This document shows positions 1-43,146 of a DNA stretch of 43,146 nucleotides, piece after piece. Made by a program: the position numbers and the translations under genes. Each line of letters starts with the position of its first letter. Position 1 is the first letter of the stretch. This stretch comes from a virus, in the IMG/VR virus record IMGVR_UViG_3300000976_000006, positions 1 to 43,146 of that record, one strand, 5' to 3'. Below the pieces are notes generated by a model that was not told where the DNA came from, did not search any database, and saw only the letters and a list, made by a program, of their open reading frames with translations.

Positions 1-49
1 CCCCGGTGCGATATGCGCCAGTCTGAACTTGAAATTCAAAAGATGAATT
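1..49. repeat. 49-bp terminal duplication, identical to 43098..43146 (closure overlap of a circular or circularly permuted genome)
   Basis: ccccggtgcgatatgcgccagtctgaacttgaaattcaaaagatgaatt occurs at both ends. A minus-strand ORF stays in frame across the junction. Confidence 0.95.
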
Positions 50-20289: not shown

Positions 20290-20406
20290 ACTAAGAACCT
20301 ATCAGATTAGTATCACATCATGCTACTCTTCGGTACACTTATTTACGTATACGTGATACCTCGGTAAACATTAAAAATAGTCCCATCTTGTGGGACAATA
20401 ATACTT
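20290..20406. promoter_or_regulatory. divergent promoter/operator region of the immunity switch
   Basis: Elements seen: a 17-bp dyad GTATC-N7-GCTAC (20310-20326), direct repeats TCGGTA[C/A]AC (20330, 20361), a perfect palindrome ACGTATACGT (20345-20354), GTGATAC (20353), and the dyad GTCCCA-N5-TGGGAC (20380-20396). A possible minus-strand promoter is TTTACC-17-TAAATA. Confidence 0.5.
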
Positions 20407-20748
20407 ATGAATAAAAAGCCAAGGGAAGAAAGTGTCTTAGCGACACCACTCTGGCGGACGAGAGTAAGGGAGTTTCTTGCAGATCAGCCGAGGGGTTACG
20501 CAACAAAAATGTGCTTAAGTTTAGGGTGTACAAAGAGCATATTCTACAAAATACTGGATGGGTCCATAAGAACCAGCACGTGGGTTCCCAAGATATCAAA
20601 ATATACAGGGGTCTCAATAAAACTCGAGTTTGACGATGTGCAGACCGAAGAGCTTTTTAAGGTTTTCGATTCCTTATCGGATGAAGACCAAGCTCTTTTG
20701 ATAGAACAAGCCAAACTATTGAAAAAAAGACAGACAAACGATCATTAA
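20407..20748 (+). CDS. CI-like HTH repressor candidate (113 aa) without a peptidase domain
   Basis: HTH-like GYATKMCLSLGCTKSIFYKILDG. It is divergent from the Cro-like gene and flanked on both sides by GTATC-N7-GATAC-type dyads. Confidence 0.55.
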   Translation: MNKKPREESVLATPLWRTRVREFLADQPRGYATKMCLSLGCTKSIFYKILDGSIRTSTWVPKISKYTGVSIKLEFDDVQTEELFKVFDSLSDEDQALLIEQAKLLKKRQTNDH

Positions 20749-25485: not shown

Positions 25486-25727
25486 TGAGCGACATTCTAT
25501 CATTGCTCTCTGAGGTCCTGGCATTGTATTCGGAGGAGGAACTACACGAAAGGCTATCTGAATGGCGAGAAGAAAAGAAAGTGCTAGATGTCTCGGACCC
25601 TACGGATGGGGTGACCGCTGGCGAATTATTGAAGTTACGCCAAATGGCGATAAAGAACGTCAAGCGCGGTACTTCAAAACGAAAGCCCAAGCCAAGGCCT
25701 ATAAAAAGCTCTACGAAGAAGCGTTAG
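25485..25727 (+). CDS. hypothetical protein (80 aa) overlapping the integrase 5' end; excisionase-position ORF
   Basis: TAATG coupling and an AAGGG RBS. Its last 166 nt overlap int in another frame. Confidence 0.35.
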   Translation: MSDILSLLSEVLALYSEEELHERLSEWREEKKVLDVSDPTDGVTAGELLKLRQMAIKNVKRGTSKRKPKPRPIKSSTKKR

Positions 25728-26656
25728 TCGACGCGCCTGATTCCGTCGGTGAGGCGCTCGAGGAATACGAGGATTACCTAAGAAACTACAAAGGCAACAA
25801 GGAAGTTTCTGTTTACCAAACCCTTTGGATAATCAGAAAGATGCTCAAAGATGAGTGGCTGCTCTCGTCGCTCACACTTAGGAGATGCCAAAAGGCCTAC
25901 GATGAACTTGTCGAATCCGGCGCATCGGTCGCCACACACAGAAGCGCGCTTTCTCAAGTCAAGACATTCCTAAACTTCTGCATCAAGCGGGATATGATTA
26001 AGGTCAACATGTGCCTGACCATTTCCGGGGTTGGGAAAAGGCGCAAGGGTAAGAAGCAACTGAGAATCAAAGATGCCCGGCGCTGGTACCATTGCGCCAA
26101 CGAACAAGCATCTCGAGGGGTCGAGGGGTCTATCGCTGCCCTAATGAGTTTGCTGCTAGGCCTGAGAGCCTCTGAGATTACAGGAATTAAGATAGGAGCC
26201 CTTGACGAGGATGAGGCGCCTTTCGACGTGGTTCACATTACGGACGCTAAGACCGAAAAAGGCGAACGCTCAGTGGATATTCCTGAGCCCCTTCGAACTT
26301 ACGTGGCCGCCATTGTTGGAGATAGATGCGAAGATGAATGGTTGTTCCACGCGAAACGTTCCGAGTCTGGACGACGTGATCGGGATTGGGTCAGGCACCA
26401 AGTCAAAAGGATATGCCGGGCCGTGGACGTTGAGGAGGTCACAGCCCACGGCATGCGCGGGATGTTGGCGACGATAGCCCTCGAGCGCGGTGCTATGGGG
26501 TCGCTTGTTGCCGACCACCTAGGCCACGAGGATGAGAAGATGACCCGGTCCGTGTATGCCAAGAAAGGTGCCGGGGATTCGGCAAGTAGGCGGAAAGGCG
26601 TCGAGGTCCTCAATAGGAAGCCAATCGTTGTTATTGACCCGTCGTCAAAAGCCTAG
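25562..26656 (+). CDS. int: tyrosine integrase
   Basis: N-terminal arm-binding-like WRIIEVTPNGDKERQARYFKTKAQAKAY. Catalytic residues: R in LGLRASEI, HxxR in AHGMRG, LGH and Y in RSVYAKK. Confidence 0.9.
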   Translation: MARRKESARCLGPYGWGDRWRIIEVTPNGDKERQARYFKTKAQAKAYKKLYEEALVDAPDSVGEALEEYEDYLRNYKGNKEVSVYQTLWIIRKMLKDEWLLSSLTLRRCQKAYDELVESGASVATHRSALSQVKTFLNFCIKRDMIKVNMCLTISGVGKRRKGKKQLRIKDARRWYHCANEQASRGVEGSIAALMSLLLGLRASEITGIKIGALDEDEAPFDVVHITDAKTEKGERSVDIPEPLRTYVAAIVGDRCEDEWLFHAKRSESGRRDRDWVRHQVKRICRAVDVEEVTAHGMRGMLATIALERGAMGSLVADHLGHEDEKMTRSVYAKKGAGDSASRRKGVEVLNRKPIVVIDPSSKA

Positions 26657-26730
26657 TAGAGTGTGATTCAACAACGATTGGCCGCCTAGATCTATGATCT
26701 TATTCGGTGCATGCAGTAATGGCATTCAAG

Positions 26731-26760
26731 AGGTCGTGGGTTCGAGACCCTCTATCTCCA
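26731..26760 (+). other. tRNA 3'-end-like segment (variable loop, T-arm, 3' acceptor strand), candidate attP core
   Basis: AGGTC GTGGG TTCGAGA CCCTC TATCTCC A has a canonical T-loop with one stem mismatch. No matching 5' acceptor strand or valid anticodon arm lies upstream. It sits 75 nt after the int stop. Confidence 0.5.
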
Positions 26761-26807
26761 CTAAATCATTAAGGAAATAAGACTCACAAATTCTGATGAA
26801 GCGAAAA

Positions 26808-26826
26808 TAACAACGGTGTAACAACG
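26808..26826 (+). repeat. direct repeat TAACAACG-GTG-TAACAACG (11-nt period); a third AACAACG lies at 26670-26676 on the other side of the core. Candidate integrase arm-type sites.
   Basis: Read directly. Three copies of a 7-mer fall within 160 bp flanking the tRNA-like core. Confidence 0.45.
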
Positions 26827-26886
26827 TTATTTCGTGTTCGTGTCAGTAAATTATACTTATCCGTGGCGGGTTCTCGCTTTTTTGCG

Positions 26887-26922
26887 TTGAATATGGACTC
26901 CCTGACTTCATATAACTAATCC
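26887..26922 (+). promoter_or_regulatory. sigma70-like promoter TTGAAT-18-TATAAC placed 6 nt before ATG 26923 (leaderless mRNA predicted)
   Basis: Read directly. No Shine-Dalgarno precedes the ATG. Confidence 0.45.
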
Positions 26923-27423
26923 ATGGCAGTCTATTTTATCCAAGATGGTGACAACGTAAAGATTGGCTCAGCAAGGGACCCAAGGAAGAGACTGGAATCA
27001 CTGCAGGGAGGCAATCCGAACCAGCTTACTTTGATAGCAGTGCAGGAGGGAGGACTCCGTGACGAGATGGAGCTTCATAAACGATTCGATGAACACAGGA
27101 TTGGTCGGAGCGAATGGTTCAGGTTTGTAGATAGTCTAAAAGATTACGCGTTGACCAGCATGGCTGGGTTGAATATCACAACCAAGAGAGCTGACCCTGA
27201 AGCTTACCGAGAAGCCCTCCCTGCTATAGCACCTAAGGCTGAGAGGAGCGGTGAAAACGTTGCCATAGCTCACGCTCGGCTACCAAAAGAGCTCTTTGAG
27301 GAGGTTGTTAAACTTGCAGGAGAACAAGGGGTGTCCAGTTACATCCGTAAATTACTAATGGACAAAGTCGTTGTCACGTGTAAAAAGTGCGATGGCAGAG
27401 GGCTTAATGTCGTTTTAAAGTAA
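26923..27423 (+). CDS. T5orf172 (GIY-YIG-like) domain protein fused to a C-terminal RHH-CxxC module (166 aa)
   Basis: N-terminal VYFIQDGDNVKIGSARDPRKRLESLQGGNPNQLTLIAV...EMELHKRFDEHRIGRSEWF matches the T5orf172/MUG113 pattern. The C-terminal NVAIAHARLPKELFEEVVKLAGEQGVSSYIRKLLMDK is RHH-like and is followed by CKKCDGRG. Confidence 0.75.
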   Translation: MAVYFIQDGDNVKIGSARDPRKRLESLQGGNPNQLTLIAVQEGGLRDEMELHKRFDEHRIGRSEWFRFVDSLKDYALTSMAGLNITTKRADPEAYREALPAIAPKAERSGENVAIAHARLPKELFEEVVKLAGEQGVSSYIRKLLMDKVVVTCKKCDGRGLNVVLK

Positions 27424-27430
27424 GGTCTGG

Positions 27431-27595
27431 TCAACTTCTCCCGCAAGTTGGGCACACTCCGAGCCTCTCCTCGCATACCCTCCGCATCCATTCGGCTGTC
27501 GATATGTTTAACTTATCAGCCTCTTTGTCCATGGCCTCTTTGAGCTTCTTGGGCATCATGATGTTTTGTTGAACTAGCTTCTTCTTGTTAGTCAT
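27431..27595 (-). CDS. ribbon-helix-helix protein with a C-terminal CxxC (54 aa); not in the ORF track
   Basis: Codon-by-codon translation gives MTNKKKLVQQNIMMPKKLKEAMDKEADKLNISTAEWMRRVCEERLGVCPTCGRS. A GGGAG RBS lies 6 nt upstream. It starts 17 nt after the stop of the 96-aa ORF. Confidence 0.6.
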   Translation of the reverse strand: MTNKKKLVQQNIMMPKKLKEAMDKEADKLNISTAEWMRRVCEERLGVCPTCGRS

Positions 27596-27612
27596 ATTCT
27601 CCCTTTTTCTGT

Positions 27613-27903
27613 TTAAGCAACTGGCGGGGTCGATGAGGGCCGGCGCCTCGGTGGCGTTGGTAATGGTAGGCCGTTTTCAGACAACGCCCTAATAAGCACA
27701 TCTCGGTTGACTACAATGTCTCGCCTGGAGCTCGAGGCCTTGCCCTCCCTGTTGAAGTTATAGACCACTCTGCAGCCCTCTAAGATCCGAAGAGACCTGG
27801 CTGCTACTTCTGATCCACCCGAAAACCCGACCTCGCCACCGTAGAAGGTGATGTTTTTAGCGCCGGGGATGAGTTTTAGTAGAGAGAGTTTGATTGTGTC
27901 CAT
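27613..27903 (-). CDS. hypothetical 96-aa protein, first gene of a two-gene cassette (antirepressor, anti-defence or toxin candidate)
   Basis: The ORF has a Pro/Arg-rich tail. SLRILEGCRVVYNFNREGK weakly recalls the RelE/ParE core strand pattern. No family was recognised with confidence. Confidence 0.55.
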   Translation of the reverse strand: MDTIKLSLLKLIPGAKNITFYGGEVGFSGGSEVAARSLRILEGCRVVYNFNREGKASSSRRDIVVNRDVLIRALSENGLPLPTPPRRRPSSTPPVA

Positions 27904-27938
27904 GTTTTAATACTAGTATATTTACTAGTATAGATCAA
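27904..27938 (-). promoter_or_regulatory. promoter TTGATC-17-TAGTAT (minus strand) overlapped by tandem palindromes TACTAGTA (27911-27918, 27923-27930) and the dyad CTAGTA-N4-TACTAG (27913-27928)
   Basis: Read directly. The -10 box ends 6 nt before ATG 27903 and there is no Shine-Dalgarno, so the mRNA would be leaderless. Confidence 0.5.
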
Positions 27939-27953
27939 GAACAATCGTGATAC

Positions 27954-28036
27954 AAAAACCACCCCAACGCGCGCGCAAAGAATAGACTCGCGAAAAAGGA
28001 ATACAACAAAAGCGAGCCCCACGCGGGTTGGGGTGG
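27954..28036 (-). terminator. structured intergenic element / probable terminator of the late operon
   Basis: CCACCCCAAC (28036-28027) pairs with GTTGGGGTGG (27968-27959) and is followed by T5 on the minus strand. A smaller hairpin CCCCA-N7-TGGGG lies directly after the stop at 28042. The 58-nt loop is unusually large. Confidence 0.35.
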
Positions 28037-28041
28037 AAACC

Positions 28042-28335
28042 TTAAAGCTCGACAGTCTCGTCTTCGTCTATTGGGGCCGGGTTCTGGACCTCACATCCGC
28101 CTTCGGTATCAAGCTCAAGCTTGGAGCCATCATTGTATACGTACTCCCAAAGGACCTTGTCGCCTTCAAGCTTCTCGCATTCAACGCGAATAAGACCAAC
28201 GCCTCGAGCTGTCAGATCGCACTGTCTAAACCAGATGCCTTTGTCCTCTCCCTTGACGAACTTTTCAATCTTTTCACATCTGCCATCTGCTAACGTTTTT
28301 TCTTCTTCCATCCTCTTGCCTTTCCCGCGCACCAA
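28042..28335 (-). CDS. hypothetical protein (up to 97 aa) downstream of the endolysin
   Basis: The ORF overlaps the endolysin 3' end by 22-46 nt. It has no TM segment or lipobox. Confidence 0.4.
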   Translation of the reverse strand: MVRGKGKRMEEEKTLADGRCEKIEKFVKGEDKGIWFRQCDLTARGVGLIRVECEKLEGDKVLWEYVYNDGSKLELDTEGGCEVQNPAPIDEDETVEL

Positions 28336-28700
28336 CGTGCCGCGAAGTTTCTAGTGTCATAGTGTGTGAAACCGTCGTATAGTCCTACTCCGCCTTGCTT
28401 CATGCGTCCCTCGCGGATAAGCCTTAGGATAACCTCGTAAACTTTGCGAGGACTCATGCCTTTAACTTGGATATCCACAGCCCTGCCTTTGACGTGTTGA
28501 CTGGTATCCTTGGAGCCAATCTTGCGATTGTATTTTAGGTGCCGATATGCGCTTGTGATTTTGATGGGCTTGCCAATCTCGTCGCGCAAGACCTGCAAAT
28601 TTTTTGCAACCTCTCGAACGGTGGGTATCAGTCTCCTAGGAACCGGGGTTCCATCTTTGGTGGCGAACTCTTTTAGTCTAAAGTGCTTCGTAATACGCAT
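28290..28700 (-). CDS. endolysin, peptidase M15 family (Zn D-Ala-D-Ala carboxypeptidase-like fold)
   Basis: LKEF, SAYR, SQHVKGRAVD and THYD give the H-x6-D ... H zinc-ligand arrangement typical of Peptidase_M15_3/M15A. No signal peptide. Confidence 0.8.
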   Translation of the reverse strand: MRITKHFRLKEFATKDGTPVPRRLIPTVREVAKNLQVLRDEIGKPIKITSAYRHLKYNRKIGSKDTSQHVKGRAVDIQVKGMSPRKVYEVILRLIREGRMKQGGVGLYDGFTHYDTRNFAARWCAGKARGWKKKKR

Positions 28701-28879
28701 AACATCCCTTCCTCAATCAACTCCTCTAGGCCGTGGTCACCGTATCGCTTTGAACTTTTTTTAAGCGCATTACACGCGATACTCCTTACGACATTACTTA
28801 TGACACCCTCCTTAAGACATGCGACGACAACGTCAACCAAGTCCTCTCGAAGCCTAATGATTTCGTCATGCGGATCCAC
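28673..28879 (-). CDS. hypothetical protein (68 aa)
   Basis: ORF between the tail and lysis genes. No TM segment. Confidence 0.4.
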   Translation of the reverse strand: MDPHDEIIRLREDLVDVVVACLKEGVISNVVRSIACNALKKSSKRYGDHGLEELIEEGMLCVLRSTLD

Positions 28880-42813: not shown

Positions 42814-43146
42814 CTAAGCTATTCCGAGCCTCCAAGCCGATTGCGAAATGTCGTCGCCTTCAGTTTCGTCTGTAGATGCGAGCCAGCTCGTGGGTACCGA
42901 GTTCAAACCTGAGAGATCAGCCTGAGTCGGCGCGCTCTGCAATCGAATTAATGGAAAATAAAACGCCAAAGCGCAGCCGTCGACCGGGCTTAGCGTATAG
43001 AGCGCGTGATATGGCTTATTGTCATTGTCGAAAATATCGTAGAATGTTGTGTCATTTGATGTCCTGGCATCAAAAGTCATGTTCACCTCGATATTTCCCC
43101 CGGTGCGATATGCGCCAGTCTGAACTTGAAATTCAAAAGATGAATT
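42814..43146 (-). CDS. 3' part of the junction-spanning major tail protein gene (see 1..955); 43098-43146 duplicates 1-49
   Basis: Same frame as 1..955 across the junction (…AYRTGG|NIEVNMTFDARTS…), with no stop in 43087-43097. The stop is at 42814-42816. Confidence 0.65.
   Translation of the reverse strand, partial: NSSFEFQVQTGAYRTGGNIEVNMTFDARTSNDTTFYDIFDNDNKPYHALYTLSPVDGCALAFYFPLIRLQSAPTQADLSGLNSVPTSWLASTDETEGDDISQSAWRLGIA
43098..43146. repeat. second copy of the 49-bp terminal duplication
   Basis: Identical to 1..49. Confidence 0.95.

Follow-up and report, generated by a model that had tools for sequence, protein, structure and literature searches.

What do two small minus-strand genes between the lysis genes and the integration site of a temperate phage encode, and what controls them? 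The question is raised by the IMG/VR virus record IMGVR_UViG_3300000976_000006, analyzed here over its whole stretch of 43,146 bp (the window), in which a preliminary description had singled out a 96-aa gene (orf96, 27613-27903) followed by a 54-aa gene (orf54, 27431-27595) as an operator-controlled cassette. A 49-bp direct repeat at the two ends of the window (1-49 and 43098-43146) indicates that it is a circularly closed whole-genome assembly, here the complete genome of a temperate phage with a G+C content of 48.5%. Our results lead us to view the cassette, with about even confidence, as a self-contained, negatively autoregulated accessory operon, in which orf96 encodes the presumed effector and orf54 a presumed autorepressor of the ribbon-helix-helix (RHH) class.

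Palindromes, candidate promoter, and terminator

Two identical 8-bp palindromes, TACTAGTA, form the candidate operator, one (27923-27930) lying in the spacer of the candidate promoter and the other (27911-27918) overlapping its -10 hexamer. These are the only copies in the 43,146 bp, where 0.21 would be expected; both are at the promoter, 12 bp apart from start to start, and both lie inside a 10-bp direct repeat, TACTAGTATA, while copies with one mismatch occur elsewhere at chance level and are intragenic. A tandem pair of identical 8-bp palindromes of any sequence arose in 3.7% of 1000 first-order Markov genomes, and the real genome contains exactly one such pair, which sits in the 138-bp intergenic region upstream of the RHH-encoding operon. 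No other copy of the operator is present in the genome, and this fits a regulator that acts solely on its own promoter. Inverted repeats that overlap the operon's own promoter are a mark of the acr-aca layout. The preliminary description had reported both palindromes, together with a dyad, CTAGTA-N4-TACTAG, that bridges them. The palindromes are confirmed and the dyad is present, but it is the arithmetical result of two identical palindromes 4 bp apart and not a third independent element.

An operator shared with the immunity region was considered and rejected: the words GTATCAC/CGTGATAC and ATACTA/TAGTAT are common to both regions, but at chance level for regions of these sizes. The immunity region (20290-20410) has inverted repeats of its own, at 20281-20294/20307-20320 and 20377-20385/20391-20399, which are unrelated to TACTAGTA.

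The hexamers that would make up the promoter, TTGATC (27938-27933, minus strand, matching four of six consensus positions) and, after a 17-nt spacer, TAGTAT (27915-27910), are found where they had been described. Only six nucleotides, TAAAAC, separate the -10-like hexamer from the orf96 ATG (27903-27901), and a purine-rich Shine-Dalgarno sequence is absent from them, as had also been noted. A leaderless or near-leaderless orf96 mRNA is therefore plausible. Genome-wide, just two promoter-like sites that match at least 8 of 12 consensus positions have the ATG of an open reading frame (ORF) of at least 50 aa located 5 to 8 nt past the -10 hexamer, those of orf96 and of the 113-aa CI-like gene, and this common geometry lends modest support to the view that both genes head leaderless transcription units in this phage. 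The cI mRNA that lambda makes from PRM is leaderless. In the CI-like gene (ATG 20407) the sequence is TTAAAA-17-GACAAT, with the -10-like hexamer 7 nt ahead of the ATG, which suggests a leaderless mRNA for that gene.

Upstream of the promoter, the lysis block ends with an ORF whose stop codon is followed by 96 nt that fold with a minimum free energy of -40.4 kcal/mol (z = -4.87), and none of 200 shuffled sequences folds as well. The structure is a long, intrinsic-terminator-like hairpin (27950-28036, minus strand) of about 78 nt plus a U-run; its outer stem is formed by CCACCCCAAC/GTTGGGGTGG, and UUUUUGUAU comes after the hairpin. It was also found as an inverted repeat, and it ends 12 nt ahead of the cassette's -35 hexamer. 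A smaller terminator-like hairpin was also found at 28033-28017. With the late/lysis operon closed off upstream by so strong a hairpin terminator, the cassette is a transcription unit of its own, which agrees with its earlier description as an operator-controlled two-gene cassette with symmetric sites over its promoter. Behind orf54, no terminator was found on either strand, and the orf54 stop codon lies 7 nt from that of a convergent gene, orf166.

The two encoded proteins

We accept Orf54 as a member of the RHH class, judging by profile matches that are weak but consistent and by a predicted fold. The matches come from three libraries, which agree on residues ~9-45: Pfam RHH_1 (E 0.01, 16.2 bits against a cut-off of 20.5 bits), two Arc-like PHROGs (E 0.0067 and 0.013), and, in NCBIfam, the RHH part of BrnA (E 0.0056, covering profile positions 34-70 of 70), along with a weak match to VapB. 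An AlphaFold2 model with a predicted local distance difference test (pLDDT) score of 81 has a strand at residues ~6-13, within an extended N terminus, and helices at 16-28 and 33-44. Among the best 50 PDB matches returned by Foldseek for this model, most, including the top ones, are RHH proteins, with Arc first, and the matched folds include Arc, VapB, AvtR, CopG, ORF56, the RHH of AcrIF25, MazE6, TacA, NikA, PutA, AmrZ, and NikR; the superpositions give root mean square deviations of mostly 1-3 Å over 32-36 residues, with higher values for the Arc entries. About five residues precede the RHH, and only nine follow helix B, where the protein ends in GVCPTCGRS and carries a CPTCG knuckle (codons 27443-27454). 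The earlier view of the second gene as a minimal RHH protein with a CxxC motif is thus borne out by the weak matches in three libraries, the RHH-like model, and the CPTCG end. The protein is basic, with an isoelectric point (pI) of 9.45. No relatives were found in a word-indexed search of 5.8 billion clusters, and tblastn against GenBank phages gave nothing significant.

Both genes were called by an independent external gene caller on the source contig, a Logan contig of SRR2835677, and they are separated by an intercistronic gap of 17 nt in which a Shine-Dalgarno-like GGGAG (27603-27599, minus strand) precedes orf54; similar GGAG-type sites precede other genes of the phage. We scored codon usage as log-odds trained on 22 long phage genes, with a core-gene mean of 0.27. 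On this scale orf96 scores 0.04 and orf54 -0.02, and each scores best in its own frame, orf96 above the 99th and orf54 above the 95th percentile of off-frame windows, although both lie at the bottom of the in-frame range for this phage. Codons 1-45 of orf96 score 0.23, which is core-gene-like and favors the ATG at 27903 over an internal GTG start at codon 46 that has GAGGG ahead of it.

Orf96 is a basic protein (pI 10.5) with a Pro/Arg-rich tail at residues 77-96. The preliminary description had recognized no family for it, and this holds across every family library and homology search used here. There was no family match at E≤1 in Pfam, PHROGs, NCBIfam, or PADLOC, and none in a PDB sequence search; the family libraries revealed no similarity to toxin, Ant, KilAC, Bro, Tum, Xis, Cox, or recombination directionality factor (RDF) families, and no match to a known anti-defense family, although no dedicated Acr library is among these four. 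Among the 5.8 billion clusters of the word-indexed search, Orf96 matched nothing but itself, and a full HMMER scan over 1.8 billion representatives added to this self-match seven large TIG, ASH, or other immunoglobulin-like repeat proteins. We rejected these seven as homologues because a single repeat alone is insignificant; their scores sum three to nine weak stretches, each below about 13 bits, and they belong to heterogeneous families.

A single-sequence AlphaFold2 prediction for Orf96 (pLDDT 76, reached by one of five models and of low reliability) has an alpha/beta core at residues 1-76, ordered a-b-b-a-b-b-a, and a disordered tail. Foldseek searches of PDB and BFVD with this model, a check proposed at the outset, gave no confident match to any family, and the weak, mixed matches to LAGLIDADG half-domains, WhiA, EpsM/PulM, de novo designs, and uncharacterized viral proteins were set aside as uninformative about function. 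Since Orf96 is small, is basic, and has a disordered tail, we presume that it acts by binding a host or phage macromolecule.

Proposed autorepression and competing explanations

In the model that we favor, late and lysis transcription would halt at the hairpin at 27950-28036, and RNA polymerase would start anew from the sigma-70-type promoter TTGATC-17-TAGTAT, with the first nucleotide at the A of the orf96 AUG or beside it. The bicistronic, leaderless RNA would yield Orf96 and, from the GGGAG ribosome-binding site, Orf54. The latter, comparable in size to Arc or CopG, would be a minimal RHH repressor and may bind as one dimer to each TACTAGTA palindrome. With 12 bp, about one helical turn, between the palindrome centers, both dimers would face the same side of the DNA, and the resulting dimer of dimers would cover the spacer and the -10 hexamer and block the promoter. 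Orf96 might then be produced either in a burst, upon entry into a cell free of Orf54, or at a low fixed set point in the lysogen. In the case of Arc, for comparison, two dimers spaced by about 11 bp occupy the 21-bp operator and Pant is shut off, and each MetJ dimer binds one 8-bp palindromic met box.

A similar pairing of palindromes with an RHH gene turned up outside this phage. In a region of about 100 bp on metagenome contig Ga0209636_10019008 (2541-2644), five perfect ATACTAGTAT palindromes lie in one intergenic region, a count reached by none of 200 shuffles, and they are flanked by a gene for a 55-aa protein with a clear RHH_1 match (1941-2108; E 4.5e-8) and by a 158-aa gene. The proteins of this locus are unrelated to Orf54, and we count this independent co-occurrence as an anecdote in favor of autorepression. 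Searches with the motif were otherwise crowded by coding sequence: TACTAGTA-N4-TACTAGTA had more than 120 matches in IMG/VR, nearly all of them coding Thr/Ser repeats in AT-rich genomes, and TATACTAGTA-NN-TATACTAGTAT had 47 in metagenomes, mostly coding repeats or eukaryote-like low-complexity sequence, none of these loci encoding anything related to the proteins of this phage. Tandem TACTAGTA motifs with 12-nt periodicity are in fact common elsewhere, mostly as in-frame Thr/Ser/Ile-rich coding repeats of AT-rich phages, and operator searches by motif only are thus uninformative.

Several observations weigh against this model. The two hexamers match the sigma-70 consensus at 8 of 12 positions in total, fall below the threshold of the promoter scanner, and were not called, while the window holds 139 sites of at least this quality, so that the promoter call rests on context and not on the hexamers. 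The GGGAG ahead of orf54, which had been described as a strong ribosome-binding site, is present, but its spacing of 3 nt to the ATG is short. All hidden Markov model scores of Orf54 for RHH families lie under the curated cut-offs, and its Foldseek E-values, for a chain this short, do not reach significance. The codon usage of both genes is atypical for the phage. Both proteins, moreover, are sequence orphans without homologues, and conservation or covariation cannot back the genes, the operator, or the pairing of the two. Finally, orf166 has an RHH-like/CxxC module that resembles that of Orf54, and the palindromes could be the target of its product.

The competing explanations differ mainly in what Orf96 does and in which protein recognizes the operator. 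The cassette might be an antirepressor module, in which Orf96 inactivates a non-cleavable CI-like repressor (the 113-aa protein or the 82-aa XRE protein) and is silenced in the lysogen by Orf54 or by host LexA. Neither repressor candidate has an S24 or other self-cleavage domain, in line with what had been said of the 113-aa protein; the cassette lies at a prophage end, a position like that of tum in phage 186, and Orf54 has its weak matches to Arc-like PHROGs. Orf96, on the other hand, has no Ant, Tum, KilAC, or Bro similarity, the gene order is reversed relative to arc-ant, a co-transcribed autorepressor offers no obvious induction signal, and no finding ties Orf96 to either repressor candidate. 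The LexA box cited in the preliminary description is correct for Xanthomonadales (TTAGTArwawTACTAa; PMC2248561), and the promoter dyad agrees with it at 14 of 16 positions, including a perfect TAGTA-N4-TACTA core. This resemblance follows automatically from the palindromes, the outer T/A is wrong on both sides, the phage G+C content of 48.5% also counts against the reading, and the attachment-site tRNA-Ala is of a type matched in Chloroflexota, Lachnospiraceae, and others, with no Xanthomonadales among the at least 120 loci listed. The Gram-positive-type box CGAAC-N4-GTTCG does not occur in the whole genome. LexA control of the cassette promoter is thus unsupported, and we consider the antirepressor module as a whole rather unlikely. 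A type II toxin-antitoxin pair with the toxin first would likewise account for a palindromic operator and for two small genes of which the second encodes an RHH protein; Orf96 shares its basic character with RelE-type toxins, and Orf54 has its weak NCBIfam matches to VapB and to the RHH part of BrnA. The suggested RelE/ParE resemblance of Orf96 did not hold up, given that nothing emerged at E≤1 in Pfam, NCBIfam, PADLOC, or PHROGs and that no RelE, ParE, BrnT, or other toxin fold is among the best 50 PDB matches listed for its low-reliability model. Orf54, in turn, is itself basic and, with nine residues past its RHH, has no extension to wrap around and neutralize a toxin, the BrnA match being confined to the RHH part, which makes it a poor canonical antitoxin and a pair of the BrnT/BrnA or RelE/ParE kind highly improbable.

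It is also conceivable, though quite unlikely, that the palindromes are bound by a factor other than Orf54, which would then have another target; the factor could come from the host or be the product of orf166 (26923-27423, plus strand). This protein combines an N-terminal MUG113/T5orf172 (GIY-YIG-like) domain (E 3e-10) with a C-terminal RHH-like segment that ends in CKKCDGRG, a DnaJ-type CxxCxGxG motif. Its C terminus is 30% identical to Orf54, with a cysteine pair at the same place (shuffle p 0.005-0.009), and in its homologues the C terminus is replaced by an XRE helix-turn-helix or by other domains, some of them DNA binding, which would mark Orf166 as a DNA-binding protein. CTAG-centered operators are, furthermore, used by helix-turn-helix proteins such as TrpR. 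Yet the predicted beta strands are made up of different residues (LVQQNIMM in Orf54 and VAIAHARL in Orf166), Orf166 is assigned to the RHH class by a very weak match (CopG_antitoxin, E 0.13), and a regulator encoded behind a promoter is the simplest partner of its operator. That the two ORFs arise by chance, or are a decaying remnant and not a functional gene pair, would fit their strict orphan status, their codon scores near the bottom of the genic range, and an orf96 model confidence that came from one of five models. We regard this as very unlikely, given that both score best in their own frame at about the 95th to 99th percentile or above, that codons 1-45 of orf96 are core-gene-like, that the external pipeline called both, that terminator, promoter, operator, and ribosome-binding site are coherently arranged, and that Orf54 is confidently modeled as an RHH monomer. 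Least probable of all is a role in excision or the control of recombination directionality by a small basic and a small DNA-binding protein. The cassette is indeed 0.7-1.1 kb from the core of the phage attachment site (attP), a basic Orf96 with a disordered C-terminal tail recalls lambda Xis, and no excisionase family was recognized in the small ORFs upstream of int; but Orf96 shows no Xis, Cox, or RDF family similarity, the palindromes, at a distance of 1.15 kb from the core of attP, are not arm-type sites, and no second palindrome copy lies near attP.

An elaboration of autorepression can be imagined as a long shot. Orf54 might be an RHH repressor of a new sort, in which CPTCG half-knuckles pair between operator-bound dimers, through a disulfide or through a Zn(Cys)4 site resembling the Rad50 hook, making occupancy dependent on zinc or redox state, and the cassette would then be a stress-sensing switch that releases an effector of an entirely new kind, small and basic, with an antirepressor or anti-defense function. 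The convergent MUG113-RHH-CxxCxGxG protein would supply a second, antagonistic input through convergent transcription, there being no terminator between the two. More generally, and speculatively, Orf166 could compete for the operator or affect the cassette via convergent transcription.

Related systems and genomic setting

The autorepressed operon that we propose has its closest parallels in two kinds of phage and mobile-element loci. P22 immI arc-ant likewise has a minimal RHH repressor, of ~53 aa, co-transcribed with an effector and acting on an operator over its own promoter, with two dimers about one helical turn apart and the kind of burst and subsequent shut-off that we propose here; Arc-like PHROGs are among the best profile matches of Orf54, and Arc is its top Foldseek match. 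In contrast to P22, the effector gene comes first and the RHH gene second, Orf96 is unrelated to Ant, and there is no divergent mnt-type gene, the upstream region holding a terminator and the other RHH-like protein, Orf166, being encoded convergently. The operator consists of two perfect, identical palindromes instead of one 21-bp pseudo-symmetric site, and the CPTCG tail of Orf54 is absent from Arc. By analogy with this system, Orf96 could be an antirepressor or a modulator of the lysis-lysogeny decision, a role we consider doubtful but worth keeping in view.

Aca14, an RHH protein described in 2026, autorepresses its operon via an inverted repeat over the -10 hexamer (PMC13551039). The acr-aca14 operons also place one or more small effector genes ahead of a small RHH autorepressor gene, with an AT-rich inverted repeat over the -10, on a mobile element (PMC13551039), and by this analogy the architecture of the cassette matches that of acr-aca loci. 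The analogy has limits, in that neither orf54 nor orf96 shows detectable membership in an Aca14 or Acr family, as judged by searches for relatives and not by a direct alignment with Aca14, and in that Aca14, modeled as a single dimer on one inverted repeat, has a long helical extension (PMC13551039), whereas here there are two palindromes and no extension. We tentatively rank an anti-defense or host-takeover effector, following acr-aca14-like logic, as the likeliest single role of Orf96, ahead of the antirepressor role considered above, and exclusion, toxin, or other functions would make up the remainder.

Other systems share fewer traits. CopG/RepB and MetJ resemble the proposed Orf54 repressor in being minimal RHH autoregulators (CopG has 45 aa) on 8-bp palindromic units with one dimer each and cooperative neighbors, but they belong to plasmid copy control or a metabolic operon and not to a phage accessory locus; for MetJ, in addition, the centers are spaced by 8 bp and not by 12, and the mRNA here is apparently leaderless. 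BrnTA, and HicAB with an RHH-bearing HicB, have the two small genes, the RHH second, the palindromic operator, and the weak BrnA match to the RHH part in their favor, but the cassette has no toxin homology and its RHH protein no toxin-neutralizing extension. The antirepressors Tum of phage 186 and those of the Gifsy phages share the prophage-end position, a repressor without a cleavage domain, and a promoter dyad that resembles one published LexA box; they differ in that there is no sign of a Xanthomonadales host here, that the resemblance to the box follows from the tandem palindromes, and that the operon has a dedicated RHH gene of its own.

If our reading is right, the cassette adds another case of the Arc/Aca scheme, a tiny RHH protein holding down the accessory operon that encodes it, from a phage lineage without sequenced relatives, and it flags a 96-residue orphan as a candidate anti-defense or lysis-lysogeny effector. 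It would also support effector searches that use, as combined bait, small regulators outside the helix-turn-helix class and palindromes that overlap promoters, as the 2026 work on Aca14 likewise argues (PMC13551039). The evidence leaves the general understanding of such systems unchanged, and its value lies in a well-delimited, cheaply testable cassette.

The position of the cassette fits an accessory role. On the minus strand, a long block starts at the 82-aa XRE gene (20289), takes in the replication, structural, and tail genes, and closes with the M15 endolysin and a 97-aa ORF that ends at 28042, and a plus-strand block runs from the 113-aa CI-like gene (20407) to the integrase (25562-26656) and the attP core. 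The cassette is located in the interval that separates the lysis block from attP, in the slot between lysin and integrase that is a classical place for accessory genes. The endolysin gene (28290-28700, minus strand) belongs to a lysis region at 28042-28879. The 68-aa and 97-aa ORFs that flank it have no obvious transmembrane segments and are neither holin- nor spanin-like, and no such gene was recognized. An Rfam scan of 26000-28600 produced no match to an RNA family.

Relatives of the phage were sought at several levels. GenBank phages yielded none with the DNA around the cassette, the terminase, the tail protein, orf96, or orf54; scans of IMG/VR and of Joint Genome Institute metagenomes with the 758-aa tail protein or orf96 found none either, and the integrase gave only distant matches, at 25% identity. 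Relatives of the endolysin were rejected as kin of the phage, being encoded by unrelated AT-rich phages.

The attP core, at ~26720-26762 on the plus strand, is the 3' half of a tRNA-Ala(GGC) gene, and the cassette is 0.67-1.14 kb away from it, in keeping with the attP-proximal position described earlier. An exact attB (31-mer) was not found in 185,579 species genomes. A degenerate pattern for the 3' part of the tRNA matched at least 120 tRNA-Ala loci, mainly in Dehalococcoidia, other Chloroflexota, and Lachnospiraceae, the best match among those listed sharing about 48 nt with 3 mismatches. The acceptor stem is of the GGGGATA type, which is commonest in Dehalococcoidia, while the nearest tRNAs come from metagenome-assembled genomes of Clostridia, Bacteroidia, and Caldiserica. 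Behind the tRNA fragment, a terminator-like site at 26859-26885 shares the words GCGGGTT and CTCGCTTTT with the long hairpin upstream of the cassette.

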